This document shows positions 5,166 through 57,309 of a DNA stretch of 57,309 nucleotides, in pieces. The position numbers were made by a program, and so were the translations under genes. How positions within the stretch are numbered: position 1 is the stretch's first letter; each line of letters starts with the position of its first letter. A model generated the notes under the pieces. It ran no database searches. It was not told the DNA's origin and was given only the letters and a program-made list of their open reading frames with translations. The stretch is from Candidatus Nomurabacteria bacterium (lineage in GTDB: Bacteria > Patescibacteriota > Minisyncoccia > Phycocordibacterales > UBA9973): positions 1 through 57,309 of the forward strand of contig CALRHG010000002.1 of assembly GCA_943359365.1 (NCBI GenBank), read 5' to 3'.

Positions 5166-5309
5166 AAAGATGTTAAATGGAAGGTTCCAAACTACACATT
5201 TCCGGCTGTTCCGGAAGTGGGCGAGACCGATTGTCTAGCCAAGTTTCGGGATCATTTTTAATGATCTTTGAAATGATGTAGTTAGTAAAAAATAAACACG
5301 ATTAAAAAA

Positions 5310-6140
5310 ATGAAACTCAAAGGAAGAATTAATCACTCCGCTGTTTTCTGGTGCTTCAACGTCTCCGAGGAAAAGTGGGACATCGAAAAGACGTGCCTGA
5401 ATGCGAAGAGACTCGGTTGCAAGTCGGTCGAAATCTGCGGCCCCGCGGAGTTTGACACGATCAAGAAGCACGGTCTGACATGTGCAATCGCGGCCAATGG
5501 GATGCCCGGTGCGCCATTCATGAAGGGACTGAACAATCTAGCCTATCAACCTGAGGTCATTGCCGTTACGACCAAGATGATTGACGACTGCGCCGCAGCG
5601 AACGTCCCCAGCGTGATTGCCTTCACTGGCTACAAATGGAGGAACGCCGAAAATGCGAACAGTGGTGAGATCTCTCTTGAGAAGGGAGCTGACAACTGCG
5701 TCGCAGGACTCAAGAAGATGGCCATTCATGCCGAGAAGAAGGGTGTTACGATCTGCCTCGAGCAGCTCAATACACGCGACAGTTCGCATCCGATGAAGGG
5801 ACATCCCGGTTATCAGGGAGATGACATCGACTATGTGGCGCACATTGTCCGTCGGGTCGGCTCCCCACGCGTCAAGTTGTTGTTCGACATCTACCACGTG
5901 CAGATCATGAACGGTGATGTGATTCGCCGTCTTGAAGAATGCAAGGATGTGATCGGTCACATCCACACGGCGGGTAATCCTGGACGAGCGGAACTCGACG
6001 ACAACCAGGAGATCAACTATCCACCCATCATGCGGAAGCTGGTCGAGATTGGGTACACGGGTTTCGTCGGTCACGAGTTTATTCCAACACGTGATGCTCT
6101 CACCGGACTTCGCCAAGCCGTCCAGCTTTGCGACGTTTAA
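5310..6140 (+). CDS. xylose-isomerase-like TIM-barrel protein, hydroxypyruvate-isomerase-like
   Basis: 276 aa. N-terminus KGRINHSAVFWCF, then ICLEQLN, FDIYHVQIM, GHIHTAG and GFVGHEF, typical of the Hyi/sugar-phosphate isomerase-epimerase fold. Conspicuously GC-rich codon usage. Confidence 0.7.
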   Translation: MKLKGRINHSAVFWCFNVSEEKWDIEKTCLNAKRLGCKSVEICGPAEFDTIKKHGLTCAIAANGMPGAPFMKGLNNLAYQPEVIAVTTKMIDDCAAANVPSVIAFTGYKWRNAENANSGEISLEKGADNCVAGLKKMAIHAEKKGVTICLEQLNTRDSSHPMKGHPGYQGDDIDYVAHIVRRVGSPRVKLLFDIYHVQIMNGDVIRRLEECKDVIGHIHTAGNPGRAELDDNQEINYPPIMRKLVEIGYTGFVGHEFIPTRDALTGLRQAVQLCDV

Positions 6141-6182
6141 GGCGCATAACATCCTAAATTTTTAAGGAATATCGAAATCAAA

Positions 6183-6216
6183 CACCCTGGGTAGAAATAC
6201 TCAGGGTGCCTTTTTT
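6183..6216. terminator. bidirectional intrinsic terminator between the hyi-like gene and sod
   Basis: CACCCTG (6183-6189) pairs with CAGGGTG (6202-6208). A T6 tract follows on + and an A-rich run precedes it. Confidence 0.6.
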
Positions 6217-6808
6217 ATTTTGCTTTAACAAAATTATTTTCAATAACTTCCCAATTCAAATTCTCAAAAAAAGCTTCCACATATTTTTTCTTTTCCGAAG
6301 TAGGGAAGTCGTAGACGAATGCGTGTTCCCACATATCGATTCCCAGTATCCATTCCACGCCGTTCAGTTGCCCCAAGTGCTGTTCGTCTATCCATATGTG
6401 CAAAAATTGCTCTGTCTTTTTGTCGTAGCCTAAAACCGCCCAACCCACGCCGCGAGTCATCGCTAAAAGCTTAAAGCCAGTCAGCCATGCGTCAAAAGAA
6501 GGCGCTTGCGCTTCTATCGCCGCTTTTAATTTTGAATTTGCCGGCAACTTTTTTTCTCCTCCTTCGAGCGATGAGAAATAATATTCATGATTTCGAATGC
6601 CGTTAAATTCGAAACTAAATCTTCTGCCCAATTCTCCAATCACATAAGCATTTTTCTCCGGATCCGCCATTAATTCGCCGATTTTTTCCGTTACCAGATT
6701 GGCATTTTTCACATAACCCGCATAAAGTTTCAAATGTTCCTCGATATTTTTTGCCGAGATTCCCTTCAATACTCCAATATTAAATTTTGTTTCTTCAAAT
6801 TTTTTCAT
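6215..6808 (-). CDS. Fe/Mn-family superoxide dismutase
   Basis: 197 aa with FNGIRNHEYYF and GIDMWEHAF (metal-ligand D..H motif). The N-terminal helix region is divergent. Confidence 0.75.
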   Translation of the reverse strand: MKKFEETKFNIGVLKGISAKNIEEHLKLYAGYVKNANLVTEKIGELMADPEKNAYVIGELGRRFSFEFNGIRNHEYYFSSLEGGEKKLPANSKLKAAIEAQAPSFDAWLTGFKLLAMTRGVGWAVLGYDKKTEQFLHIWIDEQHLGQLNGVEWILGIDMWEHAFVYDFPTSEKKKYVEAFFENLNWEVIENNFVKAK

Positions 6809-6822
6809 ATAATAAGTATATC

Positions 6823-7701
6823 ATGTTTCACAATCGCAAGAAGCATTTTTTACCTGCTTTTACTTTACTTCTTTTAGTCGCGACTATCTTTCTTTTCTAT
6901 CAGGATTTCAGGAATTCTAACAAAAGACTTACTTTTGCCATGCTAGATGTCGGGCAGGGGGATGCACTCTTCATCGAGTCTCCAACTGGTACGCAGATAT
7001 TGGTGGACGGCGGACCGCCGAGAAAAATTATGAGCCAGCTCGCGCGTGTAATGTCTCCTTTTGACCGAAGCATAGATGCGATTATTGTCACCAATCCAGA
7101 CCTAGACCACATCGGCGGCTTTGAAGATATTTTGAAGACATACAAAGTGGGCGCAGTTTTTGAGTCCGGCACTTTTAATGATTCAAAAACTTATCAGAAT
7201 TTAGAAGCAGAAATAAAAAATAAAAATATTCCGGATATCTTGGCAAAAAGAGGAATGAGATTACACATCGGCGGGGGAGCAGTGATTGATATTTTATTTC
7301 CGGACAGAGATGTCTCGCTTTGGTCTTCAAACGACGGTTCAATTGTGGCAAAACTTTCTTACGGCAAGACTTCCATCATGCTCACAGGCGACAGCACTTC
7401 GGTTACAGAGAAAATAATTCTAGAAAACTCCAAGCAAGATTCAAAAACAAATCTTGCAAGCACCATCTTAAAAGTCGGGCATCATGGCTCGCGGACTTCC
7501 ACCTCGAATGACTTTGTAAAATCTGTTGCTCCCAAATATGCGCTCATATCCAATAGTAAAGACAACAATTATGGCCACCCGCATCCAGACACCCTGAGTA
7601 CTCTGGCTTCTTTCGGCATAAAAATTTTCAGAACCGATTTATTAGGTACAATAATCATAAAATCCGACGGAAAAAGCGAGTTGTTTTCTTTTCAAAAGTA
7701 A
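6823..7701 (+). CDS. metallo-beta-lactamase-fold protein equivalent to the ComEC C-terminal domain, with its own TM anchor
   Basis: Start moved to ATG 6823, in frame with the track ORF at 6787 and avoiding overlap with the sod start. Motifs LDVGQGDA, NPDLDHIGG, TGDS and VGHHGS. Confidence 0.75.
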   Translation: MFHNRKKHFLPAFTLLLLVATIFLFYQDFRNSNKRLTFAMLDVGQGDALFIESPTGTQILVDGGPPRKIMSQLARVMSPFDRSIDAIIVTNPDLDHIGGFEDILKTYKVGAVFESGTFNDSKTYQNLEAEIKNKNIPDILAKRGMRLHIGGGAVIDILFPDRDVSLWSSNDGSIVAKLSYGKTSIMLTGDSTSVTEKIILENSKQDSKTNLASTILKVGHHGSRTSTSNDFVKSVAPKYALISNSKDNNYGHPHPDTLSTLASFGIKIFRTDLLGTIIIKSDGKSELFSFQK

Positions 7702-7718
7702 TCTGTTATATTATAAAT

Positions 7719-8963
7719 ATGAAAGACAAACTAGTAGAAAAATTAATAAAGGGCGAAGAAAAAAGGCAGAGGGAAGGGCTCGAGCTCATTCCATCGGAAA
7801 ACTATGTTTCCGAGGATGTGCTTACGGCGAATGGTTCCGTGTTTACCAACAAATATTCCGAAGGTTACCCTGGCCGGCGCTATTACGGCGGGCAGGATTT
7901 TACCGACCAGATCGAACGCCTTGCCATCGAACGCATTTGCAAATTATTCAACTGCAAGTTTGCCAATGTTCAGCCGCATTCCGGCGCTCCCGCAAACTTA
8001 GCCGTATATGCCGCGCTGCTTGCCCCGGGAGATACGGTTTTGGGCATGGATTTATCCCATGGCGGGCACCTCACGCACGGGCATCCGATGACCCTTCCGG
8101 CCAAGATCTACAAATTCGTCACTTACAAGATGAAAAATCCTGATACGGGAGAGATTGATTACGAGGAACTGCGCCGGGTAGCGATTGAACAAAAACCGAA
8201 AATAATTCTTGCCGGTTTCTCTGCTTATCCGAGGACGCTTGATTACAAAAAGTTCGTGGATATCGCGAAAGAGGTAGGAGCTATCACCATGGCCGACATG
8301 GCGCACATCGCCGGGCTCATCGCCGCGGGTGTTCTGCGCAATCCTTTTGATGACGGATTCGACATAATCACTTCAACCACGCACAAGACTCTCCGCGGAC
8401 CGAGAGGAGGAATAATTTTAACCAGAGAAAACGAGGAGCTCGCGAAAAAAATCGACAAATCAATTTTTCCGGGTATTCAAGGTGGTCCGCATATGCATAC
8501 TATCGCCGCGAAAGCTGTCGCTTTCGGCGAAGCCATGATGCCGAAATACAAAAAATACGCCGCGCAGGTGCTCAAAAACGCCAAAGCCATGGCGGAAGTT
8601 TTGCGAGAACATAAAGTCAGAATGATCGGCGGCGGCACGGATAACCATTTGATACTCGCCGATGTGTTCGGTTCGCTCGGAGTTACCGGTAAGGAAGCGC
8701 AGACAGTGCTCGACGAAGTCGGCATGACTTTAAATATGAATTCGATCGCAGGAGACACACGAAAACCGCTCGATCCTTCCGGCATTCGCTTCGGCACGCC
8801 GGCGATAACTACGCGAGGTTTCAAAGAGAAAGAATGCAAGCGCGTCGCCGAGCTGATGATAAAAGTTTTAAGGAATAAAGATGATAAAGAAATAAAAGAA
8901 GCAGTGCACAAAGAAATAAAAGCGCTGGCTAAAAAGTTTCCGATACCAAAAAGTTTTGTATAA
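7719..8963 (+). CDS. glyA: serine hydroxymethyltransferase
   Basis: 414 aa with ELIPSENY, YPGRRYYGG and the PLP-lysine motif TSTTHKTLRGPRGG. Confidence 0.95.
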   Translation: MKDKLVEKLIKGEEKRQREGLELIPSENYVSEDVLTANGSVFTNKYSEGYPGRRYYGGQDFTDQIERLAIERICKLFNCKFANVQPHSGAPANLAVYAALLAPGDTVLGMDLSHGGHLTHGHPMTLPAKIYKFVTYKMKNPDTGEIDYEELRRVAIEQKPKIILAGFSAYPRTLDYKKFVDIAKEVGAITMADMAHIAGLIAAGVLRNPFDDGFDIITSTTHKTLRGPRGGIILTRENEELAKKIDKSIFPGIQGGPHMHTIAAKAVAFGEAMMPKYKKYAAQVLKNAKAMAEVLREHKVRMIGGGTDNHLILADVFGSLGVTGKEAQTVLDEVGMTLNMNSIAGDTRKPLDPSGIRFGTPAITTRGFKEKECKRVAELMIKVLRNKDDKEIKEAVHKEIKALAKKFPIPKSFV

Positions 8964-8969
8964 AAAATA

Positions 8970-9392
8970 ATGCAAATTATTCTCGATTCGCAAAATAAAA
9001 GCGTCGTCAGGGTAGACAAAGGCGAAGAGTGTCTGAGCATTTTGAAATCTTTTGCGCAAAAAAAGGATGCGTCATTTAATTTTTCCATAATCGGCGCATG
9101 CGCCGAGGTTGAGCTCAGTTATTTTGATGTAGCAATGAAAAAATATTTTAATAAAGTATTTAATACGGGCAATATAGAGATAGTGTCTGTGAACGGTAAT
9201 GTCGCGTGGGCGGAAGGCGAGGCGATGGTTCATGCGCACGGAGTATTTTCCGATGAAGAATATAAATGTTTCGGCGGGCATATTGTGAAATGTATTGTAT
9301 CTATCACCGGCGAGGCAGTTATCGATTGGCTGCCTAACAAAATTAGTAAAAAAATCGACGAAGAAACTGATTTAAAATTTTTGTGTCCGTAG
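8970..9392 (+). CDS. PPC (DUF296) domain protein
   Basis: 140 aa with the ..VHAHGVFSD....GGH pattern typical of DUF296/PPC domains. Confidence 0.6.
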   Translation: MQIILDSQNKSVVRVDKGEECLSILKSFAQKKDASFNFSIIGACAEVELSYFDVAMKKYFNKVFNTGNIEIVSVNGNVAWAEGEAMVHAHGVFSDEEYKCFGGHIVKCIVSITGEAVIDWLPNKISKKIDEETDLKFLCP

Positions 9393-9426
9393 TTACTTTT
9401 CATCTTTTTTCTGCTATATTTTCTAT

Positions 9427-10134
9427 ATGGCAAAAAAAGGAAAACTCATCGTAATAGACGGCACGGACGGGTCTGGCAAGGCTACACAGATAGACCTTTT
9501 GATAAAACATTTAAAGAAGGAAGGACGCAAGGTAAAAGTTGTTGATTTTCCGGAGTACTATTCTAATTTTTTTGGAAAGTTCATCGGGCACTGCTTGTCT
9601 GAGCAATATTATAATTTCGTTAAGATACACCCGAAGATTGCTTCTGTGCTATACGCGGCAGATCGCTTTGAATCAGCAGATAAAATAAAAAAATGGTTAT
9701 CCGCGGGAAACATTGTCGTTGCGAACAGGTATGCGAGCGCGAACCAAATTCATCAGGGCGGCAAAATCGCTAATACAAAAAAAAGAGAGAGTTTCTTGCA
9801 ATGGCTGGCTGAGATGGAGTATGGAGTTTTTAAAATCCCAAAGCCGGACGCGGTTTTTTATCTCTCCGTGCCTATTCCTATAGTTCTGGAACTCATAGAA
9901 AAGAGGAATAGAGAAACACACAGAGCTTATCTCGGCAAGAAAAAAGAAAAAAAGGCCGATGTTCATGAAAAAGATGTAAATTTTCTAGAAAATTCTAGAA
10001 AGAGCGCATTATGGCTGGCAAAGACTCAAAAGGGCTGGATAAAAATAGAATGTACTAGAAATGGGGTTATTGATACTAGGGAGAACATACATAAAGAAAT
10101 TTATAAAAAGATCAAAAAAATTATAACCAAGTAG
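9427..10134 (+). CDS. tmk: thymidylate kinase
   Basis: 235 aa with P-loop IVIDGTDGSGKATQ and a DRF/ANRY region. Confidence 0.85.
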   Translation: MAKKGKLIVIDGTDGSGKATQIDLLIKHLKKEGRKVKVVDFPEYYSNFFGKFIGHCLSEQYYNFVKIHPKIASVLYAADRFESADKIKKWLSAGNIVVANRYASANQIHQGGKIANTKKRESFLQWLAEMEYGVFKIPKPDAVFYLSVPIPIVLELIEKRNRETHRAYLGKKKEKKADVHEKDVNFLENSRKSALWLAKTQKGWIKIECTRNGVIDTRENIHKEIYKKIKKIITK

Positions 10135-16644: not shown

Positions 16645-19600
16645 ATGAACGAAGAAAATAAAAATTTAAAGAGTGATGCAGCAAAGCGCGAAGAAGCGGT
16701 TTTGGAGTTTTGGAAAGAAAATAAAATTTTTGAAAAGTCTTTGGACCAGACGAAGAAGGGAAAAGAATTTATTTTCTACGAAGGTCCGCCGACGGCGAAT
16801 GGGAAACCGGGGATACACCACTTGGAGGCTCGCGCTTTCAAGGACGCGATTCCGCGGTACAAAACGATGCAGGGTTTTCATGTGCGCCGAAAGGGCGGGT
16901 GGGACACGCATGGTCTGCCGGTGGAACTTCAGGTGGAAAAAAAACTTGGGCTGAATTCTAAAAAAGCGATTGAAGAGTACGGTATAGAAAAATTCAACAA
17001 AGAATGCAAAGAGTCCGTCTGGGAATATTTGGATGTATGGAATAAATTTACGAAGCGCATTGGTTACTGGGTGGATCAGGATAAGCCGTTTGTCACTTAT
17101 GAAAATGATTACATTGAATCCGTATGGAATGTGCTGAAAAAAGTTAATGACCAGAAATTACTTTTCAAGGATTACAAAGTCGTGCCATGGTGCCCGAGAT
17201 GCGGCACAGCTCTTTCTTCGCACGAGCTCGCGCAGGGGTATGAAGATGTGAAAGATTTGTCTGTTTATGTGAAATTTAAAGTGAAAGGAGAAAAATTTAA
17301 GGATACGTATATATTGGCTTGGACAACGACACCTTGGACCTTGCCAGGGAATGTTGCTTTGGCTGTGGGTAAAGACATTAAATATTCTTGGATTCAGACT
17401 GCCAACGATCTTTATATTATAGCTTCGGATTTAATTCCAAAATTATTTACTTCAGAAACAATTAAAGTAAAAGATGAATTTTATAGTAAAGATTTAATTG
17501 GTTTAGAATACGAACCGCTTTTTTCTTTTCTTGCGGATGGTATTTCTGAAAGTGAAAAACCGAAATTGGGAAAAGCTTTCAAGGTATATGCAGCGGATTT
17601 TGTAAACACTCAGGACGGTACAGGCATTGTTCACACGGCCGTCATGTACGGACAAGATGACTTCGCGCTTGGAACGGAAGTTGGCTTGCCGAAGCATCAT
17701 TTGGTGAATCTTGAGGGTAAATTTATAAAAGGCACAGGGTTTTTGGAGGGCAGATTTGTGCGGGAAACGGACCCGAACGGCAAGCCGACGCTTGCGGTGG
17801 ATATAATTGACGACTTAAAGAAAAGAAACTTATTTTTCAAACAGGAAAATTACAAACACTCATATCCGCATTGCTGGCGATGCAAAACCGCGCTCATATA
17901 TTACGCGCGGGATTCTTGGTATATCCGAATGTCGGATCCAAAAATCAAAAAAGAGCTCATCAGCGAAAATAAAAAAATAAATTGGGAGCCGGAATATATC
18001 CGCGAGGGCAGGTTTGGCGAATGGCTCAAAGAGATAAAAGATTGGGCGATATCGCGCGAACGGTACTGGGGCACACCTTTGCCGGTATGGATATGCACGG
18101 ACTGCAAAAAAACTGAGGTCGTCGGAAGTATTGAGGACTTGAAAGAAAAAACAAAAAAGTCCGGCAATAAATATTTTGCTATGCGGCACGGGCAAGCGGA
18201 TAATAATGTAAATGATTTTCATTATAGGGAATTGCAGGAAAGTGCCGCGCTGACTGAGATAGGAAGGGATCAGATAAAAAAAAGTATCAAAAATTTCAAC
18301 CACAAAATAGATGTTGTAATTTCTTCTACTTTAAAAAGAGCCAAACAAACAACACAAGTAGTTTGTGAAAATATTAAATTTCCGCTCGAGAATGTTGTTT
18401 ATGATGAACGCGCAAGGGAGTGGGAAGTCAGCTCTCTTTTTGACGGCAAAGAAAGGGTTGTGTTTAAGAAATATTACAATGTAGATTACTTAGATAATCC
18501 AGGGGAAGTTTTGCCGGAAGGGGAGAGCTTCGCTCAAGTGATTAAAAGAGTCGGAGATTTTATTTATGATTTAGAAAAAAAATATTCAGGCAAAAATATT
18601 CTCATTGTCGGACATGAGGGAGCGACGCGAGCGCTTAGCTTTCTGGCAAAAGGTTTGTCCTTTAGCGATTTGTCGAGCGAGAATGACCCGCTCGTTTCTC
18701 TCAAAAATGCAGAAATCAAAGAATTTAATTTTGTGCCGCTTCCGCATAATGAAAATTATGAATTAGATTTACACAAGCCTTTCATTGATGAAATAAAGCT
18801 TTCTTGCAAATGTGGCGGCGATCTCATACGCACAAAAGAAGTCATGGATGTCTGGTTTGATTCTGGCGCAATGCCTTTCGCGCAGGATCATTATCCGTTT
18901 GACCCCACACCAAAGCAAGCTTGGTACGGGGCAGGAAATAAAAAGTCTCAGCAGATTTTATATCCAGCTGATTTCATATGCGAAGCAGTAGATCAGACTC
19001 GCGGCTGGTTTTATACTCTGCACGCTGTCGGAATTTTGATGGGGCGGGGGAAGGCTTACAAAAATGTGATCTGTCTCGGACACTTGCTCGATGCTAATGG
19101 CAAAAAAATGTCCAAATCTATCGGCAACGTCGTCGACCCGTGGATCATGATGGAGAAATACGGGGTGGACACGCTTCGGCTTTGGATGTATTCGGTTAAT
19201 CAGCCCGGCGAATCGAAAAATTTTGATGAAAAAACTGTGCAGCTGCTTCACAGCCAAGTTTTCGGCCTGCTTTACAATGTACTGGCGTTTTATGAGTTGT
19301 ACCGTGACAAGAATTTAGAAAAAAATGACAAGCTTAAATCAAAAAATATTTTGGATGTTTGGATTTTGGCAAGGCTTGATGAACTTGTGAAGCTCAGCAC
19401 GGAAAATTTGGATAGTTACAAATTGCTTGAGCCGGTGCGTGGAATGCGGGATTTTATCGGCGACCTTTCGACATGGTACTTGCGCCGCTCGCGCGAGAGA
19501 ATTAAAAATGACGACAAAGACGCTAAACAAACTTTGTATTTTGTTTTGAAAAGCTTGGCAAAAATTCTGGCACCCTTTGCGCCTTTTACGGCAGAAGATA

Positions 19601-20643
19601 TTTGGCTTAAGTTAAAAACCAAAGATGATGTAGAAAGTGTGCATTTAGCTGAATGGCCGAAGGCAGGCAAAATTCATTCTGGTATTCTTGAGAATATGAG
19701 AATAGTTAGGAATATTGTGAGTTTAGGGCTAAAAGAAAGACAGAAAGCAATATTGCCTGTGCGTCAAACACTTTCAAAACTTGAAGTGAAAAATTTTGAT
19801 TTGAGCAAAGAATATATTGAACTCGTAAAAGATGAGCTGAATGTGAAAGAGGTAAAGCAAAACAAAAATCTTGAAGCTGAAGTCGCGCTTGATACCACAA
19901 TTACTCCGGAGCTCAAAGCCGAAGGGGATTATCGCGAATTTATGCGCTCCATCCAAGACAAAAGAAAAGAATTAAACCTAGCACCTAGCGATAAAATGGC
20001 ACTTCCAGTGGAAACAATATACAAGATATACAAAATAATGCCTGTATTGGAGATGCACATGCTTCGCGTGGCAGCTGTGGCAACTCTCATCTGCGACAAT
20101 TTTGAGGGATTTGTGCCGAAAGAAGAAATAATCACGGTTTGCTTGCTGCATGATATGGGTAATATTATCAAATCAAATTTTGAGTTTATGCCGGAATCAT
20201 TGGAACCGGAGGGGTTGGAATATTGGCAAAATGTAAAAGATGAGTTCGTAAAAAAATACGGAAATGATGAAGAAAAAGCTCACGGGAAAATCATGGAAGA
20301 AATTGGTGTGTCTAAAAAAATAATAGGACTTGTGAACAAAATTAGCTTTAAATACGCTTGTGATTATAAAGAAAATAAAGACTTTGTTATTAAAATAATA
20401 AATTATGCGGATTGGCGAGTCAGTCCTTGTGGTGTAGTTTCTTTTGATGAACGCATGATTGAATCAAAGAGTCGCTACAAACTTAAAACCAAAGCTGAAG
20501 AAGACGAACGAGAAAGACTGATTATTTGTGCCAAAGAAATCGAAAAGCAAATTTTCGCTAAATGCAAAATAAAACCGGAGGATATCAACGATGAAACTGC
20601 GACGCCAATAATTTCAAAACTAAAAAATTTCATGATAAAATAG
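16645..20643 (+). CDS. ileS: isoleucyl-tRNA synthetase with an inserted histidine-phosphatase domain and a C-terminal HD domain
   Basis: Start set at ATG 16645, after the T-box terminator. Motifs GIHHLEA (HIGH), editing TTPWTLPGN, and KMSKS. Extra RHG..../VGHEG domain at ~18160-18765 and an H..HD domain at ~20010-20640. Confidence 0.95.
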   Translation: MNEENKNLKSDAAKREEAVLEFWKENKIFEKSLDQTKKGKEFIFYEGPPTANGKPGIHHLEARAFKDAIPRYKTMQGFHVRRKGGWDTHGLPVELQVEKKLGLNSKKAIEEYGIEKFNKECKESVWEYLDVWNKFTKRIGYWVDQDKPFVTYENDYIESVWNVLKKVNDQKLLFKDYKVVPWCPRCGTALSSHELAQGYEDVKDLSVYVKFKVKGEKFKDTYILAWTTTPWTLPGNVALAVGKDIKYSWIQTANDLYIIASDLIPKLFTSETIKVKDEFYSKDLIGLEYEPLFSFLADGISESEKPKLGKAFKVYAADFVNTQDGTGIVHTAVMYGQDDFALGTEVGLPKHHLVNLEGKFIKGTGFLEGRFVRETDPNGKPTLAVDIIDDLKKRNLFFKQENYKHSYPHCWRCKTALIYYARDSWYIRMSDPKIKKELISENKKINWEPEYIREGRFGEWLKEIKDWAISRERYWGTPLPVWICTDCKKTEVVGSIEDLKEKTKKSGNKYFAMRHGQADNNVNDFHYRELQESAALTEIGRDQIKKSIKNFNHKIDVVISSTLKRAKQTTQVVCENIKFPLENVVYDERAREWEVSSLFDGKERVVFKKYYNVDYLDNPGEVLPEGESFAQVIKRVGDFIYDLEKKYSGKNILIVGHEGATRALSFLAKGLSFSDLSSENDPLVSLKNAEIKEFNFVPLPHNENYELDLHKPFIDEIKLSCKCGGDLIRTKEVMDVWFDSGAMPFAQDHYPFDPTPKQAWYGAGNKKSQQILYPADFICEAVDQTRGWFYTLHAVGILMGRGKAYKNVICLGHLLDANGKKMSKSIGNVVDPWIMMEKYGVDTLRLWMYSVNQPGESKNFDEKTVQLLHSQVFGLLYNVLAFYELYRDKNLEKNDKLKSKNILDVWILARLDELVKLSTENLDSYKLLEPVRGMRDFIGDLSTWYLRRSRERIKNDDKDAKQTLYFVLKSLAKILAPFAPFTAEDIWLKLKTKDDVESVHLAEWPKAGKIHSGILENMRIVRNIVSLGLKERQKAILPVRQTLSKLEVKNFDLSKEYIELVKDELNVKEVKQNKNLEAEVALDTTITPELKAEGDYREFMRSIQDKRKELNLAPSDKMALPVETIYKIYKIMPVLEMHMLRVAAVATLICDNFEGFVPKEEIITVCLLHDMGNIIKSNFEFMPESLEPEGLEYWQNVKDEFVKKYGNDEEKAHGKIMEEIGVSKKIIGLVNKISFKYACDYKENKDFVIKIINYADWRVSPCGVVSFDERMIESKSRYKLKTKAEEDERERLIICAKEIEKQIFAKCKIKPEDINDETATPIISKLKNFMIK

Positions 20644-28373: not shown

Positions 28374-28411
28374 ACCTCACCCCAGCCCTCTCCTTGTTAA
28401 GGAGAGGGGGA
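28374..28411 (+). repeat. GC-rich hairpin repeat, family A (38 nt identical to 39184-39221)
   Basis: ACCTCACCCCAGCCCTCTCCTTGTTAAGGAGAGGGGGA. The internal stem CCCTCTCCTT/AAGGAGAGGG spans 28386-28408. Confidence 0.85.
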
Positions 28412-28452
28412 AAGTCGTTGACTTTTTTATGAAAAGGAGTAATATATAAGGT

Positions 28453-32150: not shown

Positions 32151-32187
32151 AGCAAACTTGTCAACCTGGCAGGTTGACAAGTTTGCT
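32151..32187. repeat. REP-like palindrome copy 1 (perfect 18-nt arms)
   Basis: AGCAAACTTGTCAACCTG-G-CAGGTTGACAAGTTTGCT. Confidence 0.9.
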
Positions 32188-34147: not shown

Positions 34148-34173
34148 TGTCAACCTGTCAGGTTGACAAGTTT
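34148..34173. repeat. REP-like palindrome copy 2 (left arm truncated)
   Basis: TGTCAACCTG-T-CAGGTTGACAAGTTT, starting 2 nt after the stop of ORF 33214. Confidence 0.85.
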
Positions 34174-34196: not shown

Positions 34197-34883
34197 ATGG
34201 TGGGAGATATTTATCATATTTGCAATAGAGGCATTAGAAAAGAAAAAATTTTTGACAATGATGCTGATTATTTTAGATTTGTTTTGAATTTATATCGTTT
34301 GAATAATAAAGGGGAAAGTTTGAGGATGAATCCACACAGAAAATCTATTGATTCTTTTCCGGAACAAGATAAAATAGTTGAAGTTTTAAAATGGACTTTA
34401 CTGTCGAATCACTACCACCTTCTTTTATATGAAAAAGTTGACGGCGGAGTTTTAGAATTTGTTAAAAGACTCGGTAACTCATTTACTAAGTATATAAACA
34501 TCAAAAGGGAAGCTAGTGGCTACCTATTTCAAAATTCTGCCCGTATTATTCAGATTCAAAGCGATAAGCATTTTTTGTATATTCCATTTTATATTGATCT
34601 TAATTTACTGGATTTAATTTATTCAAAGACTGAACACAGGAAAATTGATATTAAAAAGTCACTGGATTTTTTCAAAAATTATAAATGGTCTAGCTTCCGC
34701 GATTATTTTGGGGATCAAAATTCCCCCTTTTTAAAAATTATAAATAAGGATTTATTTTATGAAACTTTCGATGTGAATCCTAAAACTTACCAAAAAGAAC
34801 TCTCCGATTTCTTAAAAGGGGACGAATATGAAACATTAAAATGCGATCTTATAAAAGAAAAACTTGTCGACGTGGCAGGTTGA
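34197..34883 (+). CDS. IS200-like Y1 (HUH) transposase, REP-associated tyrosine transposase (RAYT)-like
   Basis: 228 aa with YHICNRG, the HUH motif SNHYHLLL, catalytic-Tyr region FTKYIN, GYLFQ and YKWSSFRDY. Flanked on both sides by the same palindrome. Confidence 0.75.
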   Translation: MVGDIYHICNRGIRKEKIFDNDADYFRFVLNLYRLNNKGESLRMNPHRKSIDSFPEQDKIVEVLKWTLLSNHYHLLLYEKVDGGVLEFVKRLGNSFTKYINIKREASGYLFQNSARIIQIQSDKHFLYIPFYIDLNLLDLIYSKTEHRKIDIKKSLDFFKNYKWSSFRDYFGDQNSPFLKIINKDLFYETFDVNPKTYQKELSDFLKGDEYETLKCDLIKEKLVDVAG

Positions 34884-34890
34884 CAAGTTT
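34860..34890. repeat. REP-like palindrome copy 3 (two arm mismatches)
   Basis: AAACTTGTCGACGTG-G-CAGGTTGACAAGTTT. It encodes the last 8 codons and the stop of the RAYT-like gene and abuts the recA stop. Confidence 0.85.
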
Positions 34891-35958
34891 CTAGGCCTCC
34901 TCGGCAAACTTCTTTCTGATTTCTTTTAATATCTGATCAGATATTTTTTTATTCTCTTTCAGGAAAGTACGAGTAGCGTCGTAGCCCACGCCGAGCTTTA
35001 CTTTCTCTGATTTCTCCTCACCCTTGGGAAGGGGGAGGTCAGGTGGGGGTACGAAGAAATACGAATTCCCAGATTTTTCTATGATTTTAAATTTCTCTCC
35101 GAGCGCCATGATTTCGCCTTCTTTGGAAATGCCTTCATTGTAGATGATATCGAATTCCGTCTGTTTGAACGGAGCGGCGACTTTGTTTTTGACTATTTTC
35201 ACGCGCGTGCGGCTGCCCACGACTTCCTCTCCTTTTTTGATTTGGGCGATTTTGCGGATATCGAGGCGGATAGAAGTGTAAAATTTGAGGGCTTTGCCTC
35301 CCGGAGTCGTTTCCGGATTGCCGAACATTACGCCTATTTGCATGCGGATCTGGTTGATGAAAATGACAACTGTTTTAGACCTCGCGACGATGGCGGTGAG
35401 CTTGCGAAGGGCTTGGGACATGAGCCGAGCCTGCTTGCCGACATGGTACGCGCCCATATCGCCCTCGATTTCATCTTTCGGTGTCAGAGCTGCCACGGAG
35501 TCAATGACGATGACATCTATCTTGCCTGTGCGCACGAGGGACTCTACGATTTCGAGCGCCTGTTCGCCGTTGTCGGGCTGGGAGATGAGCAAATTATTTA
35601 TATTTACTCCGAGTTTTTTCGTATATTCCGGATCCATCGCGTGTTCGGCATCTATGTAGGCGCAAACTCCGCCGAGTCTTTGCGCTTCGCCGACGATGTG
35701 GAGGGATAGGGTAGTCTTGCCGGAAGATTCCGGTCCGAATATTTCTATGATTCTCCCGCGGGGGATTCCGCCCACGCCGAGCGCCATGTCGAGGCCGATG
35801 GAGCCTGTCGGGATCACATTCACGTCCACTTTAGGAGAGTCCCCAAATTTCATGATTGCTCCTTCGCCGAATTTTGTCTGAATGGATTTCAGGGTGTCCT
35901 CCAGCACAGCCATGCCTACCGTCTTGTCTTCTTTCTTCTCTTTTTTCTTGTTCATCAT
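34891..35958 (-). CDS. recA: recombinase RecA
   Basis: 355 aa with Walker [18 protein letters not shown] and [10 protein letters not shown]. Carries a short in-frame insertion ([15 protein letters not shown]) in the C-terminal domain. Confidence 0.95.
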
Positions 35959-36304: not shown

Positions 36305-38508
36305 ACAACATTCTCCCCAGTGTCGGTGCGTTCGATTTTTTCCAGCACTTCGCGGGGCTTGGCGCCGTCACCCGGGCCGATGACTCCGCGTTCTTCCAAT
36401 TTATCCATCAGACGCGCCGCTCGAGCGTAGCCTAATTTTAATTTTCTTTGCAAGTATGAAGTCGAAGCGCGTCCGGCCTCGATCACGCAGGCTCGAGCTT
36501 CTTCATACATCTCATCATCGTCTTCCAAGTCTTCTTCGCTATTTAAAGTGCTTTCGAAAATACTTTTGTCGGCCGAAATGGATCCTGTTGACAGCGCTAT
36601 TTCTTCCGAAACTTCGTCTTTGTAGGCATCGGCTAAATATTTTACAACTTTTTTAACTTCAGATTCAGAGATGAAGGCGCTCTGTAGTCTCTCCGGCTGA
36701 GCTTCGCCCGAAGAATAGAGCATATCGCCGGCGCCGAGGAGCTTTTCCGCTCCGCCGGTATCGAGAATAGTGCGTGAGTCCACCTGTGAAGACACTTTCA
36801 AAGCGATGCGGGCAGGAATGTTTGCCTTGATGAGTCCGGTGATGATGTTTACTTCGGGGCGCTGAGTGGAAAGTATCAGATGTATGCCCACCGCTCGGGA
36901 CATTTGGGCTAAGCGTACGATGGCGGACTCAAGTTCCCTAGGATAAGAGCTCATTATGTCTGCGAGCTCGTCTATGATAACGACAATGTAAGGCATGCGG
37001 TCGGCATTTACTTCCTCTTTGCCGTCTTCGCTTTTCTTGCTCTTAACTTTGCCAAAAATATTGCTGTGATAAGACTCTATATCTCTCACGGACTCCGATT
37101 CCAATATGTCATAGCGGCGGTCCATTTCTTTAGCTGCCCATTTTAAAGCCAAGATCGCTTTCTTGGCATCTGTGATTACAGGAGTGAGTAAGTGCGGAAT
37201 ATTGTTGTATAAAGTAAGCTCCACGCGCTTTGGGTCTATCAGAATAAATTTCAAATCATCCGGACCGTTTCTATATAAAAGGGAAGTTACTATCGAGTGG
37301 ATAGTGACTGATTTTCCCGAGCCAGTCGTGCCGGCGACAAGGCAGTGCGGCATCTTGGCGAGGTTGCCAAAGATAGATTTGCCTCCAATGTTTCGCCCGA
37401 GGGCGATGGTGATAGGTTTTGCCGAGTTCTGGAACTTATCATCCGCGAGGAGAGTGGCCAGTCCGACAATAGACTTTGATCTGTTTGGGATTTCAATGCC
37501 GACGAGAGATTTTCCCGGGATCGGCGCTTCGATTCTGATCGGGTGCGCGGCAAGCGCTAGCGCTAAGTCATTTTGCAGGCCGAGAATTCGGGAGAGCTTC
37601 ATGCCTTCCGCCGGCTTGAGAGCATAACGGGTGACGGTCGGGCCGACAGTAATCTCGTCCATCTCGACTTCGATGCCGAAGTTGAGAAGCGTGCGCTTGA
37701 TGATGTTCGCGTTTGCTTTGATGTCGCCGGTGTTCGGCTTGCCCTGATCTTCTTCTAGAAGCGAGAGCGGGGGAGGGACGTATGTGGAAATAAGTCCGCT
37801 TCTTTTCTTGATCGGCATTTCTTCTTCCTCTTCCGCCTCTTCTTTATTTTTTATGCCTAGTGCTTTTTTAATTTTCTCGCCGGTGGTTTCTTTTGGTTCT
37901 TCAATCTCTTCTTCAGGCTCGGGTACCCCCTCCGCCTCCGGCACCTCCCCCTTCGGAAGGGGGAGGTCGGGATCGGTTTTTTTCCTCGTTATAAAGTTCC
38001 AAACTTTTTTCAAAAATGGCATTAAGTCCAGCTTTGCGTCAAACAGTACTAGAATTGAAATTATTAAAATTGCTCCGAGAAAAATAATACTTGCGTATAT
38101 ATCAAAAAGAGATACTAGGGGGTTTGCTAAAATTTTTCCCAAAAGTCCACCGGAGTGAGCTCCCGCGGCCGCCCTGGACGAACCTCCGGCGATATCTATC
38201 AAGCCGAGTCCTGAGAGTAGAAACATTGCCGCACTTATTATATTTTTCCATCCGACATTCGGGGTCTCTGATTTCAAAAATGAGTATCCTAAAATAACCA
38301 AAAGAGTCGGCAAGAGGACATAGCCGACTCCTAAAAGATAAAAAAGTTTTTCGTGAATAAACCCGCCGGCGACTCCCGTCATGTCGAATGCGGACATTAA
38401 AAAAAATAGCGCGAAGACAAAAAATATGACCGCAAATATTCCGTTCTTAGTTTGGGTTTTCAGGCCTGATTTTTTTTCTTCTTCTACATCTTCTGTATTT
38501 TTTTTCAT
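36301..38508 (-). CDS. ftsK: DNA translocase FtsK/SpoIIIE
   Basis: N-terminal TM helices, an acidic/Pro linker, motor domain with Walker A GTTGSGKS and Walker B VIIDELAD, and a C-terminal gamma wHTH. Start chosen at ATG 38508; the track start 38526 lies inside a hairpin repeat. Confidence 0.9.
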   Translation of the reverse strand: MKKNTEDVEEEKKSGLKTQTKNGIFAVIFFVFALFFLMSAFDMTGVAGGFIHEKLFYLLGVGYVLLPTLLVILGYSFLKSETPNVGWKNIISAAMFLLSGLGLIDIAGGSSRAAAGAHSGGLLGKILANPLVSLFDIYASIIFLGAILIISILVLFDAKLDLMPFLKKVWNFITRKKTDPDLPLPKGEVPEAEGVPEPEEEIEEPKETTGEKIKKALGIKNKEEAEEEEEMPIKKRSGLISTYVPPPLSLLEEDQGKPNTGDIKANANIIKRTLLNFGIEVEMDEITVGPTVTRYALKPAEGMKLSRILGLQNDLALALAAHPIRIEAPIPGKSLVGIEIPNRSKSIVGLATLLADDKFQNSAKPITIALGRNIGGKSIFGNLAKMPHCLVAGTTGSGKSVTIHSIVTSLLYRNGPDDLKFILIDPKRVELTLYNNIPHLLTPVITDAKKAILALKWAAKEMDRRYDILESESVRDIESYHSNIFGKVKSKKSEDGKEEVNADRMPYIVVIIDELADIMSSYPRELESAIVRLAQMSRAVGIHLILSTQRPEVNIITGLIKANIPARIALKVSSQVDSRTILDTGGAEKLLGAGDMLYSSGEAQPERLQSAFISESEVKKVVKYLADAYKDEVSEEIALSTGSISADKSIFESTLNSEEDLEDDDEMYEEARACVIEAGRASTSYLQRKLKLGYARAARLMDKLEERGVIGPGDGAKPREVLEKIERTDTGENVV

Positions 38509-38728: not shown

Positions 38729-39571
38729 ATGTTGTCGGCTAATAAGGACATGAAAGAAAATATAAAAGACCCCGAACGAAAGCTCTCTGCTTCGTACGGG
38801 GCAGGCACAGAAAATATGTCCATTACATTGTCTTATACCAAGACTAATAAGCTAATTACTGCCCTATATATGGTAACGGACATAATAGACAAAGATGAGC
38901 CAATTAGAAATAAATTAAGGAGTTTGGGTGCAGAGATTATATCGGACCCCGAACGAATCCGACCTGAGGTCAGATCATACGGGGCAGGCATGTCCATGAG
39001 AATAGAGCAGATAATAGCTTTTTTAAATATCTCTTCTGCGATGAATTTTATTTCGGAAATGAACTGCAATATTCTCAAAAAAGAATTTATTGAACTGAAA
39101 GCATCAATACAGGAGGGTATGAATATGAAACCCGCTTGGCTAACAGAATTTTTTTCTGAGCCAGCGATTTCTAAATCCAATTCACCTCACCCCAGCCCTC
39201 TCCTTGTTAAGGAGAGGGGGAACCCAAATTCTAACAGACATAAAAGACATACACGTCTTGGTGTCCAAAAGGGAAGCACTCTAATGGACGCACTAAGCGG
39301 AGTAGAAATGTCCAATAGAAAATTGGATCATATAAGCCACAATGTATTTAATGAATTAAAGAAAGAAAGGCGTAATTTTATAACCAATACTATTAAAAAT
39401 AGCGGGGGGAATATTAGCATAAAGGACATATTAACTAAAATGAACGCAGTAGAAAAAAACGAACTGTCTTTTAGTGAAAAAACTCTTCAAAGAGAACTGG
39501 TGTCCATGACGAAAGACGGGATACTAAACAAAGCGGGGGAGAAACGTTGGAGCAGGTATTCTGTAAAATAA
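38729..39571 (+). CDS. hypothetical protein with a C-terminal winged-helix-like domain; contains three in-frame GC-rich hairpin repeats
   Basis: 280-aa ORF (alternative start ATG 38816). The C-terminus ISIKDILTKMN....SEKTLQRELVSMTKDGILNKAGEKRWSRYSV looks wHTH-like. Confidence 0.5.
   Translation: MLSANKDMKENIKDPERKLSASYGAGTENMSITLSYTKTNKLITALYMVTDIIDKDEPIRNKLRSLGAEIISDPERIRPEVRSYGAGMSMRIEQIIAFLNISSAMNFISEMNCNILKKEFIELKASIQEGMNMKPAWLTEFFSEPAISKSNSPHPSPLLVKERGNPNSNRHKRHTRLGVQKGSTLMDALSGVEMSNRKLDHISHNVFNELKKERRNFITNTIKNSGGNISIKDILTKMNAVEKNELSFSEKTLQRELVSMTKDGILNKAGEKRWSRYSVK
39184..39221 (+). repeat. GC-rich hairpin repeat, family A copy 2 (inside ORF 38729, read as SPHPSPLLVKERGN)
   Basis: 38 nt identical to 28374-28411. 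Confidence 0.85.
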
Positions 39572-45218: not shown

Positions 45219-45320
45219 ATTCTCCTCTTGAGGAGTACCCTGAGGCTTTTCCTCAGGGGGAGGTGGATGAATTTTGTCCACCCCGTCTCGGATTACCGAG
45301 CCACCCCTCAAGAGGGGAAT
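45219..45320 (+). repeat. GC-rich multi-hairpin repeat, family D copy 1
   Basis: ATTCTCCTCTTGAGGAGTACCCT..AGGGGGAGGTGGA..TCCACCCC..(variable hairpin)..CACCCCTCAAGAGGGGAAT. Begins 2 nt after the stop codon. Confidence 0.85.
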
Positions 45321-45328
45321 AAACAAAG

Positions 45329-48228: not shown

Positions 48229-48394
48229 ATTCTCCTCTTTGAGGTGAGCTTGGGGTAGGAACCCAAGCGCAAGACCTTGAGCACTGAAAGTGCGAAAGGT
48301 GTACAGCTCCTGTAAGGAGTACCCTTTAGGGGGAGGTGGAAGAATTCATCCACCCCGCTCCGACTTTGGTCGGAGCACCCCTCAAGAGGGGAAT
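48229..48394 (+). repeat. GC-rich multi-hairpin repeat, family D copy 2 (with a ~70-nt internal insertion)
   Basis: Same termini and core as 45219-45320. Begins 3 nt after the stop codon. Confidence 0.85.
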
Positions 48395-48444
48395 AAAATC
48401 TCACAAAAAATCTCACAAATGGGGGATTTTTTGTTTTGGGAAAG

Positions 48445-50467: not shown

Positions 50468-50574
50468 ATCTAGCTAGGCAAGACCTAGCTATAAATATAT
50501 GATTACAAAACATTTTTTCAAAACACTGCTGATTTTCACACTACTAATTGCCCTCGGGCTTTTGGCTGTTTATT

Positions 50575-50602
50575 TTGCAAAATAAAGCAAATATGTTATA
50601 GT
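50575..50602 (+). promoter_or_regulatory. sigma70-type promoter for rplJ-rplL
   Basis: TTGCAA - 16 nt - TATAGT with TGt immediately upstream (extended -10). Confidence 0.55.
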
Positions 50603-50686
50603 GGTTTTACCGCAGAGAAAGCAGGCTCAAGATTTTTCTTGTCTAAGTCCTGCCCAGTGGGTCGAGCGGTTTTGACCGTTTTTTTT

Positions 50687-50770
50687 ATTCTCCTCGTTGA
50701 GGAGTACCCTTCAGGGGGAGGTGGAGAATTCATCCACCCCGGCGCAAGCGCCACCCCTCAAGAGGGGAAT
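50687..50770 (+). repeat. GC-rich multi-hairpin repeat, family D copy 3 (inside the rplJ 5' leader)
   Basis: Same termini and core as copies 1 and 2. Ends 10 nt before the rplJ ATG. Confidence 0.85.
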
Positions 50771-50780
50771 CAAATACACT

Positions 50781-51269
50781 ATGTTACAAAAATCAAAAAA
50801 AGAAGAAATAGTGAAAGGTCTGGAGAGCGCGATAAAGGGTTCGGAGTCTTTGGTCTTCGTGAACTTCCATGGACTGAAAGTAAGCGATGAGACGAAGTTA
50901 CGACGTGAACTGCGAGCCGGAGGAGTCGGCTACAAAGTTTCCAGAAAGACTCTGCTCGCCCGCGCACTCAAAGGCAAAGCGGAGGGAGAAGTTCCAAAGC
51001 TTGATGGGGAAGTGGCTATAGCTTACTCTAAGGACGAGATAGCGAGTCCGCGCGAAGTTTACAACTTCCAAAAGACGCACAAGGGAATAGTTCTTACCAT
51101 CTTGGGAGGAATCTTTCAGGGGAAATTTGTGGGCAAAGAAATGATGATGGAGCTCGCAACCATACCAAGCAGGGAAGTATTGCTTTCCAAATTAGCGTTC
51201 TTGCTACAGAGTCCTATGCAACGCTTGGCTATCGCGGTGAATGAAGTGTCGAAAGGGAAAGGTGCATAA
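50781..51269 (+). CDS. rplJ: 50S ribosomal protein L10
   Basis: Start set at ATG 50781; the in-frame upstream part of track ORF 50697 is the family D repeat. MLQKSKKEEIVKGL...LVFVNFHGLKVSD..KLRRELR..G...KVSRKTL. Confidence 0.9.
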   Translation: MLQKSKKEEIVKGLESAIKGSESLVFVNFHGLKVSDETKLRRELRAGGVGYKVSRKTLLARALKGKAEGEVPKLDGEVAIAYSKDEIASPREVYNFQKTHKGIVLTILGGIFQGKFVGKEMMMELATIPSREVLLSKLAFLLQSPMQRLAIAVNEVSKGKGA

Positions 51270-51286
51270 TTATAAGATAACAGGTT

Positions 51287-51349
51287 CTAGTTTCTAGGTT
51301 CTAGGAAATGAAAATTACTAGCAACTAGTCACTAGCACCTAGCAACTAA
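51287..51349 (+). repeat. heptad-periodic CTAG array in the rplJ-rplL spacer
   Basis: CTAG starts at 51287, 51294, 51301 and at 51318, 51325, 51332, 51339. CTAA at 51346 continues the phase. Confidence 0.9.
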
Positions 51350-51353
51350 TACA

Positions 51354-51722
51354 ATGTCAAAATTTGATGCATTTTTAAAAGATTTAGAGGGAGCTTCCGT
51401 CTTGGAGCTCAATGAACTAGTAAAGGCTATCGAAACAAAGTTCGGAGTATCAGCTGCTGCTGTGGCTGCTGGTCCTGCCGCAGGCGCAGGTGCCCCGGCA
51501 GCGGAAGAGCAGAGCGCATACACTGTGATGCTCGCATCTGCCGGCGAACAGAAAATCGCGGTCATGAAGATCGTGAAAGAAGTCTTGGGTCTAGGTCTAA
51601 AAGAGGCAAAGGACTTAGTTGACGCCGCTCCTTCAAAGCTGAAAGACGGCATGAAGAAAGAAGAGGCTAATACACTCAAGAAAAAGATTGAGGAAGCTGG
51701 TGGGAAAATCGAATTGAAGTAA
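51354..51722 (+). CDS. rplL: 50S ribosomal protein L7/L12
   Basis: 122 aa with [32 protein letters not shown], an Ala/Pro/Gly hinge and C-terminal domain ..[24 protein letters not shown].... Confidence 0.95.
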
Positions 51723-56286: not shown

Positions 56287-56489
56287 GTTTGTAAAATCAG
56301 GACGAATGACACTTTGAAAATTGAAAAATCTATCAAGAACTTGGAAGGGGTCTTCCGAGGCTTAGATAGATAAAGGCCAAAAAGTTACTTTAGGTAGCGA
56401 GCGGTCGCAAACAAAGTATCTGTTAATTTTTTTGGCTTTGTTTTCTCCTCGCCGAAAGGCGAGGATTGTGGTTTTCAAATTTCTTAACA

Positions 56490-57309
<820 letters not shown>

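Follow-up and report, generated by a model that had tools for sequence, protein, structure and literature searches.

We argue that the CTAG array between rplJ and rplL in a Candidatus Nomurabacteria genome is a copy of a dispersed hairpin element built of 7-nt repeats. It resembles repetitive extragenic palindromic (REP) elements and REPINs, and it would double as a leader for translation that does not depend on a Shine-Dalgarno (SD) sequence. We put the probability of this reading at about one in two. The DNA examined is a stretch of 57,309 nt (the window), which homologues of its ribosomal protein L10 place in Candidatus Nomurabacteria (Paceibacteria / Patescibacteria). The spacer is 84 nt long (51270-51353). 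The element is about 70 nt long and has the layout TTAG/AGG-(GTTCTAG)n, loop, (CTAG-MAM)n-CTAA. It is predicted to be transcribed as part of the rplJ-rplL mRNA and lies downstream of the rplJ leader. The parts of the locus are as follows.

50781-51269, plus strand: rplJ (ribosomal protein L10), with a TAA stop; Pfam Ribosomal_L10, homologues in Candidatus Nomurabacteria.
51282-51304, plus strand: 5' arm, AGGTTCTAGTTTCTAGGTTCTAG, three G/T-type CTAG heptads; invariant in five aligned copies from four gene junctions.
51305-51317, plus strand: hairpin loop, GAAATGAAAATTA, 13 nt; the least conserved part, with about 4 differences from the relative L052.
51318-51349, plus strand: 3' arm, the A/C-type heptads CTAGCAA, CTAGTCA, CTAGCAC and CTAGCAA followed by CTAA; found in the sequence, by Tandem Repeats Finder and by complementarity.
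51350-51356, plus strand: TACA linker and the rplL ATG, with 4 nt between the array and the start codon.
51354-51722, plus strand: rplL (ribosomal protein L7/L12); Pfam Ribosomal_L12 and Ribosomal_L12_N.

The initial annotation described a phased CTAG array with a 7-nt period in this spacer, and every position it gave is present in the sequence. CTAG starts at 51287, 51294 and 51301 and again at 51318, 51325, 51332 and 51339, and a CTAA at 51346 stays in phase. Seven copies within 56 nt compare with 0.11 expected by chance (P = 3.8e-11 for at least seven in 56 nt, about 2e-6 after correction for all window positions). Tandem Repeats Finder reports period-7 arrays at 51282-51305 and 51317-51348. 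The pattern CTAGN3CTAGN3CTAG has three matches in the window, all of them within the array, and none in 100 dinucleotide shuffles. The spacer does contain stop codons in all six frames as described, with 3-5 per frame. The rarity of CTAG holds within the window only in part. There are 114 copies, which is 0.54 of the expectation from base composition but 1.06 of that from a Markov model, so avoidance of CTAG in the window is only mild.

The lack of an SD-like run before rplL had also been noticed correctly, but it is the norm here. An SD-like tetramer at -18 to -6 precedes 3 of the 47 window genes, and rplL is not one of them. Since SD sites are nearly absent from this genome, the missing site is the rule and not a peculiarity of rplL. 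Many window genes have a TGnTAnAAT box that ends 6-8 nt before the ATG, which implies that leaderless mRNAs are widespread. A literature search on leaderless or Shine-Dalgarno usage in Patescibacteria found nothing specific.

What the initial annotation overlooked is that the two UAG blocks are the arms of one inverted repeat. Positions 51288-51304 and 51332-51348 are complementary over 17 nt (88%). The RNA of the spacer region folds with -20.9 kcal/mol (z = -2.35), and the spacer alone with -19.3 kcal/mol (z = -3.3). In the predicted fold each heptad contributes about 6 bp and then a U.C mismatch. The 7-nt period of both arms allows them to pair in at least two registers. The minimum-energy fold of the single sequence pairs the 5' arm with the distal units of the 3' arm and stops 5 nt short of the AUG. 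In the consensus fold of five copies the 5' arm is paired with the proximal units instead, and about 15-20 nt before the AUG are unpaired. The element is a short imperfect palindrome able to fold as a hairpin, as REP and REPIN elements are. An upstream open reading frame (ORF) acting through reinitiation was considered and rejected; an ATG in the loop at 51308 opens an ORF of 6 codons, and it is not conserved in other copies.

The same element is found at other genes. Near-identical copies, loop included, occur in low-GC contigs before rplI (L229) and in the rpsN-rpsH and rpsH-rplF spacers of L298, a contig whose S8 protein is Nomurabacteria-like. Copies about 90% identical are found in related genomes in the rplV-rpsC, rpsN-rpsH, rpsH-rplF and pre-rplI spacers. 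A longer contig of the same organism as L298 (L327) has the element at rplV-rpsC, rpsN-rpsH and rpsH-rplF and a single arm at rplP-rpmC, which is three full copies and one partial copy within 8 kb. Two homologous operons (L329 and L330) are without it and a third (L328) has one copy before rpsN. Five copies were aligned (rplJ-rplL of two species, pre-rplI, rpsN-rpsH and rpsH-rplF); the mean column identity is 78% and the 5' arm does not vary. A covariance model built from these five scores 95-105 bits at L229, at L298/L327 (rplV-rpsC, rpsN-rpsH and rpsH-rplF) and at L321, and 90 bits at L052. All six independent high-scoring copies are on the strand of the downstream gene, and the opposite strand scores 40-45 bits. 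On the unbiased set of loci centred on L10 the model matches only in rplJ leaders and rplJ-rplL spacers. Given where the copies lie, the element is not specific to the L10/L12 pair.

Orientation can be examined in metagenome loci picked by the pattern GGTTCTAGN3CTAGGTTCTAG. There are at least 120 matches, and all figures for this set are for the matches listed. Their contigs range from 30-70% GC and carry pure (GTTCTAG)n runs as well as many hairpin arrangements. The arrays in the 120 loci listed were each read both ways, and an ORF of at least 80 aa with an ATG within 20 nt was scored. Such an ORF lies downstream of 32/144 arrays when they are read as (CTAG-AAC)n, but of 4/144 when they are read as (GTTCTAG)n (sign test, 2e-6). 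Restricted to arrays that lack a partner arm, the counts are 21/109 and 4/109 (p = 9e-4). The usual ending of an array is CTAA-N2-10-ATG. Downstream genes confirmed by Pfam encode L20, S8, L6, L27, S10, RRF, FtsZ, L9 and Clp, and related arrays precede rplJ, rplT, rpmA, rpsJ, frr and ftsZ. About 10 of the 19 recognisable downstream genes in low-GC contigs belong to the translation apparatus.

Similar arrays turn up in other settings. High-GC contigs (62-68%; L204, L240, L283, L292 and L314) have (GGTKCTA)n - GGGAAGAGCGCTCTTCCC - (TAGMACC)n hairpins, and a number of these adjoin start codons. The pattern (CTAGN3)x4 has at least 120 matches in IMG/VR viral contigs and is of no use as a specificity test. 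CTAG-heptad arrays are thus far wider than the Patescibacteria, because high-GC bacteria and viral contigs carry them. Hairpin arms with a 7-nt period and other units (AATTACG/CGTAATT; AAAGTNN/ACTTTAT) are seen at L043 1831-1858, L045 1794-1828, L071 1780-1807, L060 1834-1868 and in the L322 spacer, so heptad-periodic hairpins recur in the clade. A single arm, aggttCTAGttgCTAGgttCTAGt, lies at L011 4350-4371. It is nearly identical to the 5' arm of the window, has no partner arm, and is placed between the stop of an MscS-like gene, which it directly follows, and a terminator-like hairpin.

The orthologous spacers in related species were compared as well. We gathered 80 species-level loci by L10 homology; 78 contain both genes, which gives 79 spacers with the window. 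The spacers of the 78 relatives are 11-153 nt long. Those of at most 45 nt (36/79) are AT-rich, typically ttattaattaa...atattATG, and have no insert. The 43 longer ones mostly fold (z of -2 or lower in 38 of them), and their inserts belong to many unrelated families, including GC-rich REP-like palindromes. CTAG/CTAA heptad arrays are present in about 8 of the 78 related spacers (L052, L016, L017, L064, L072 and L007, and weakly L004 and L021). In L006, L014, L064 and L071 such arrays are also found ahead of rplJ, where they lie between the terminator of the leader and the ATG. The nearest relatives, at 88-89% L10 identity, have other hairpins in the spacer, and a strain that is 99.3% identical (L321) has an identical element. 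On a rough L10+L12 tree the CTAG type is patchily distributed, and sister species have unrelated hairpin repeats at the same sites. The conservation of the array in rplJ-rplL spacers that the initial annotation proposed to check is not found, since about 70 of the 78 lack it. Nor is its proposal that the array could be a device setting the L12:L10 stoichiometry supported, given this absence and the roughly 90% identical element at other junctions. Because the array is patchy among orthologous spacers, it is not a conserved solution to this problem.

Where the element is shared by orthologous spacers it is strongly conserved. Between the window and L052 no part of the locus is better conserved than the spacer. 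It is 88% identical, whereas identity at four-fold degenerate sites is 39% in rplJ and 57% in rplL, which is near saturation. The main difference is one extra heptad, a CTAGCAC unit in L052, so copy number varies between relatives. In a sliding window the spacer stays at 0.90-1.00 with a dip to 0.77 at the 7-nt indel; coding sequence is at about 0.75 and the non-coding DNA past rplL at 0.23-0.50. A second type of 3' arm, 32 nt long (CTAGAAGCTAGAACCTAGCAACTAGAACCTAA), is invariant in L016, L017, L072 and L218. Four-fold-site identity among species with this type is 37-47% in pairs with L072 and 67-71% between L016 and L017. It follows that the element is either under sequence constraint or repeatedly renewed, and that the constraint is greatest on the arm beside the AUG.

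It is worth considering the repeats around the element. The window holds several families of small palindromic repeats and one RAYT-like ORF.

34197-34883, no strand assigned: RAYT-like (IS200/Y1 transposase-like) ORF; 30% identity to a protein of L329 (tblastn, E 1e-16).
34148-34173 and 34860-34890: palindrome TGTCAACCTGnCAGGTTGACAAGTTT flanking the RAYT-like ORF, with a third copy at 32154-32184, 2 kb upstream.
50697-50775, plus strand: GC-rich palindromic repeat of about 85 nt, of another family (copy 50707-50773), with further copies at 45250-45323 and 48323-48397.
28374-28412 and 39184-39222: perfect 39-nt repeat ACCTCACCCCAGCCCTCTCCTTGTTAAGGAGAGGGGGAA, REP-like.
35016-35039 and 37943-37966: inverted pair related to the 39-nt repeat, REP-like.

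The RAYT-like ORF of the window scores 16.6 bits against Pfam Y1_Tnp, and the L329 protein 26.5 bits, with a cut-off of 23. RAYT-like genes were found in the window, L329, L328, L026 and L261. Hairpins of another family flank the L329 gene and also fill the rplJ-rplL spacers of L019 and L027. Since RAYT-like genes are flanked by palindromes of their own, REP/RAYT-type biology is present in the clade. The ORF at 34197-34883 and its TGTCAACCTGnCAGGTTGACAAGTTT palindromes by themselves resemble a REP/RAYT system in a Patescibacterium. The GC-rich repeat of about 85 nt fills the untranslated segment between the leader terminator and rplJ in the window. It is found elsewhere in the rplJ leaders of L003, L008 and L015 and in the rplJ-rplL spacers of L009 and L036. 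The 39-nt repeat and the inverted pair resemble inserts in the spacers of L001, L002, L053 and L071.

We propose the following scenario. The element would spread from site to site without duplicating its target, and a Y1 (RAYT-like) transposase of the type found in these genomes may do the copying. The flanks compared (tgaa/ataa/ttaa before the element; tcaa/tcat/ttt/taca after it) have no target-site duplication. Copies would land in, or persist at, spacers immediately 5' of starts in highly expressed operons. They would be tolerated, and probably retained, only where the A/C-rich arm serves as an SD-independent leader of the next cistron. At rplL the 3' arm is poor in G and reaches 4 nt from the AUG, which is compatible with SD-independent initiation, and it probably serves it. 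The hairpin may modulate access to the downstream cistron or its stability. It is plausible, and partly supported, that the element is a functional and strand-specific cis-element at the rplL translation start. This much of the initial annotation can be kept, since strand-specific adjacency to the AUG and high conservation speak for it; the parts that invoked HutP, TRAP or stoichiometry cannot.

Several observations weigh against the REP-like reading. There is only one copy of the element in the 57-kb window. No RAYT gene was seen beside a CTAG-type hairpin; the flanks examined are those of the window and L329 genes, both with other palindromes. In L261 the distance between the CTAG arrays and the RAYT-like gene is at least about 6 kb. 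The context statistics rest on the 120 metagenome loci listed, which were selected by pattern. In the five-copy alignment the arms are invariant, so the covariation test of the hairpin is uninformative and lends it no support. In the species with the L016 type the 3' arm does not vary but the 5' arm decays, so selection may act on the linear 3' array and not on the hairpin or on mobility. Conservation above that of synonymous sites is also unusual for a selfish repeat.

These points lead to the most serious alternative. One can imagine that the phased (C)UAG heptads are a host operator, bound by a sequence-specific and probably oligomeric RNA-binding factor (S1, a cold-shock protein or a new ring protein) that co-regulates or boosts highly expressed cistrons. 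The conservation is at the level of sequence, and the 3' arm with its triplets is invariant despite four-fold sites near saturation. Placement beside the AUG is strand specific, translation genes are enriched downstream (the roughly 10 of 19 recognised in low-GC contigs among the matches listed), and the 7-nt phase is that of HutP sites. The same idea has been proposed for TAACTGA repeats (PMC4679880). However, a candidate binding protein was not found. HutP, TRAP, CsrA and Hfq have no match in the window. Two CspA-like matches lie in metagenome loci, and one CsrA match is non-significant (E 0.2). It would also be odd for a regulon that most orthologous junctions are without the array or have unrelated hairpins, and the near-identical copies in one genome (L327) resemble copy-and-paste. 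An operator explains the sequence conservation better than a REP-like element does and the patchiness worse. We consider it unlikely, but it deserves to be kept in mind.

A bolder version is that the arrays are the cis-element of an undescribed post-transcriptional system of Patescibacteria that lack SD sites. A sequence-specific factor, possibly a ring protein that binds one UAG per subunit in the manner of HutP, would sit on the phased array shortly before AUG codons. It would drive or tune initiation at internal cistrons of ribosomal-protein operons, and the hairpin-forming 5' arm would be an anti-operator. We regard this as a long shot.

Another possibility is that the array is a neutral simple-sequence repeat without function that arose in place by replication slippage. 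Heptanucleotides are the commonest long simple-sequence repeats in bacteria according to Mrazek 2007 as summarised in PMC4679880, and that summary favours this explanation. The one-unit difference between the window and L052 is what slippage would give, and metagenomes and viral contigs often contain pure (GTTCTAG)n runs. However, the irregular order of units (ttt/gtt; caa/tca/cac/caa) recurs at other loci, which implies copying and not repeated local origin. A functionless repeat should not be more conserved than four-fold sites or oriented toward start codons either. This makes a purely neutral origin very unlikely.

The array could also act as DNA, either as an operator for a DNA-binding protein that recognises CTAG or as an internal promoter of rplL. 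Some repressors make use of CTAG steps, as at the trp operator. The only promoter-like match in the spacer is a weak one, TAGTCA-18-TACAAT at 51326-51355. We rejected it because its -10-like hexamer lies over the ATG, which would put the transcript start within rplL. The genuine promoters here are TGnTAnAAT boxes 6-8 nt before the ATG, and there is none like that at rplL. The strand-specific placement of single arms points to RNA. A role at the DNA level is therefore highly improbable.

The least credible explanation is the one first proposed, that an antiterminator or translational repressor similar to HutP or TRAP binds two UAG-N4-UAG-N4-UAG sites and sets L12:L10. The UAG triplets at 51288/95/302 and 51319/26/33/40 do form two clusters of three or four with 4-nt spacing, as in the description of HutP sites; against this, there is no terminator-like site in 51270-51353 on which a terminator/antiterminator could be built, the two clusters are 88% complementary to each other, TRAP requires 2-3-nt spacers where the array has 4-nt spacers (period 7) and blocks of 3 and 4-5 triplets, and the element is neither specific to rplJ-rplL nor present in most relatives. 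Neither protein was found in the DNA searched. HutP (PF09021) is not among the 47 window genes, and tblastn with HutP has no match in the window or the rplJ and metagenome loci (about 1.08 Mb, with the IMG/VR loci outside the search). TRAP has no tblastn match in the window or loci. All the named HutP homologues among the 120 listed of 768 in the database are from Bacillaceae.

No Rfam family fits the spacer, whether judged by the gathering threshold or by E<=10; the Rfam matches in the window are 23S rRNA and a chance match to L20_leader upstream (E 8). No paper was found that describes CTAG-heptad elements in Patescibacteria.

Two further features lie upstream of rplJ.

50574-50602, plus strand: promoter-like site of the operon, found by promoter scan.
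50610-50690, plus strand: rplJ leader with an intrinsic terminator, CCGCAGAGA...AGTGGGTCGA; a terminator-like site that is conserved in relatives.

Of the 81 sequences scanned, which are the window and 80 Nomurabacteria loci, 68 yielded the leader. Its consensus fold contains a CCGC/GUGG helix that does not vary and a helix of 7 bp in which 4 pairs show compensatory changes (UA<->CG 11:8; CG<->UA 13:8). It has no match in Rfam. We suggest it is a candidate for an unannotated L10 leader or attenuator.

Some observations elsewhere should be recorded. At 16645-20643 the window encodes a 1332-aa protein like isoleucyl-tRNA synthetase. Its architecture is unusual, since a histidine-phosphatase (His_Phos_1) domain interrupts it at residues 512-691 and there is a weak HD match at the C terminus. 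The 5' 800 nt of a 23S rRNA gene are at 56486-57309. No 16S rRNA gene was found in the 56 kb upstream, so the rRNA genes are apparently unlinked. Foreign genes are present inside the ribosomal-protein operons of L330 and L327. L330 has a diversity-generating retroelement (RVT_1 + bAvd) between rplE and rpsN at 7094-9600. L327 has pilin-like (N_methyl) genes between rplE and rpsH at 4425-6868, and a HicA-like gene upstream of rpsS.

The element matters for how internal cistrons are translated without an SD sequence in bacteria rich in leaderless mRNAs, such as the Patescibacteria, since it offers a concrete handle on this problem. It extends the little-studied class of heptamers close to start codons from the TAACTGA repeats of Beggiatoaceae to a second unit in a very distant lineage, which suggests a general phenomenon. 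Should it prove to be no more than a REP-like passenger, it still shows that hairpin repeats turn over rapidly within essential operons of streamlined genomes.

Several known systems can be compared with the element. Heptanucleotide repeats of cyanobacteria (STRR) were reportedly described by Mazel in 1990. Geobacter metallireducens has elements of four heptanucleotides (PMC2700814). These and the long simple-sequence repeats are likewise tandem, non-coding, multi-copy families of 7-nt units whose copy number changes by slippage. Their units are different, and by their descriptions they have neither strand-specific placement at start codons nor hairpin pairing.

The HutP site in the hut leader of Bacillus subtilis has UAG triplets 4 nt apart in two clusters. 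The CTAG array shares the UAG-N4 spacing and the two clusters, but it is without hut genes and without a terminator or antiterminator, and its clusters are complementary. TRAP (MtrB) sites consist of 9-11 (G/U)AG triplets with 2-3-nt spacers. Phased triplets of the (G/U)AG type near a start codon are common to both, but the period of the CTAG array is 7 nt and each of its blocks has 3-5 triplets.

REP and REPIN elements go with RAYT (Y1) transposases, as reportedly described by Nunvar in 2010, Bertels and Rainey in 2011 and Ton-Hoang in 2012. The likeness to them is considerable. The CTAG element is an imperfect palindrome of two inverted arms of about 25-30 nt, it is extragenic or intercistronic, and L327 has three near-identical full copies of it, the 57-kb window one. 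It forms lineage-specific families without evident target-site duplication, in a clade that has RAYT-like genes with their own palindromes. It differs in that its arms are heptad-periodic and sit directly 5' of start codons and not at 3' ends. The orthologous copy is conserved beyond synonymous sites, and no RAYT was found beside a CTAG hairpin.

The closest published parallel is the TAACTGA repeats. These heptamer direct repeats occur in marine Beggiatoaceae, some Cyanobacteria and Bacteroidetes (MacGregor 2015, PMC4679880). They are 2-6 tandem copies that contain stops, they are mostly intergenic and 'forward', and they end a few nt from a start codon. They usually lack an SD sequence, and they are over-represented before translation and ribosomal-protein genes and inside ribosomal-protein operons. 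They are patchy across taxa, and translational regulation has been proposed for them (all PMC4679880). The CTAG element likewise consists of stop-containing tandem heptamers in one orientation that end a few nt from a start codon (4 nt in the window), with no SD before rplL and SD-like tetramers at just 3/47 window genes. It too lies in ribosomal-protein operons and is patchy. Its unit is different, a CTAG core with a variable A/C triplet, and its hosts are Patescibacteria. TAACTGA repeats are not predicted to be structured (PMC4679880), whereas CTAG copies are typically paired with an inverted arm as a hairpin. Unlike the TAACTGA repeats, the CTAG element has an irregular order of units that is copied between loci.

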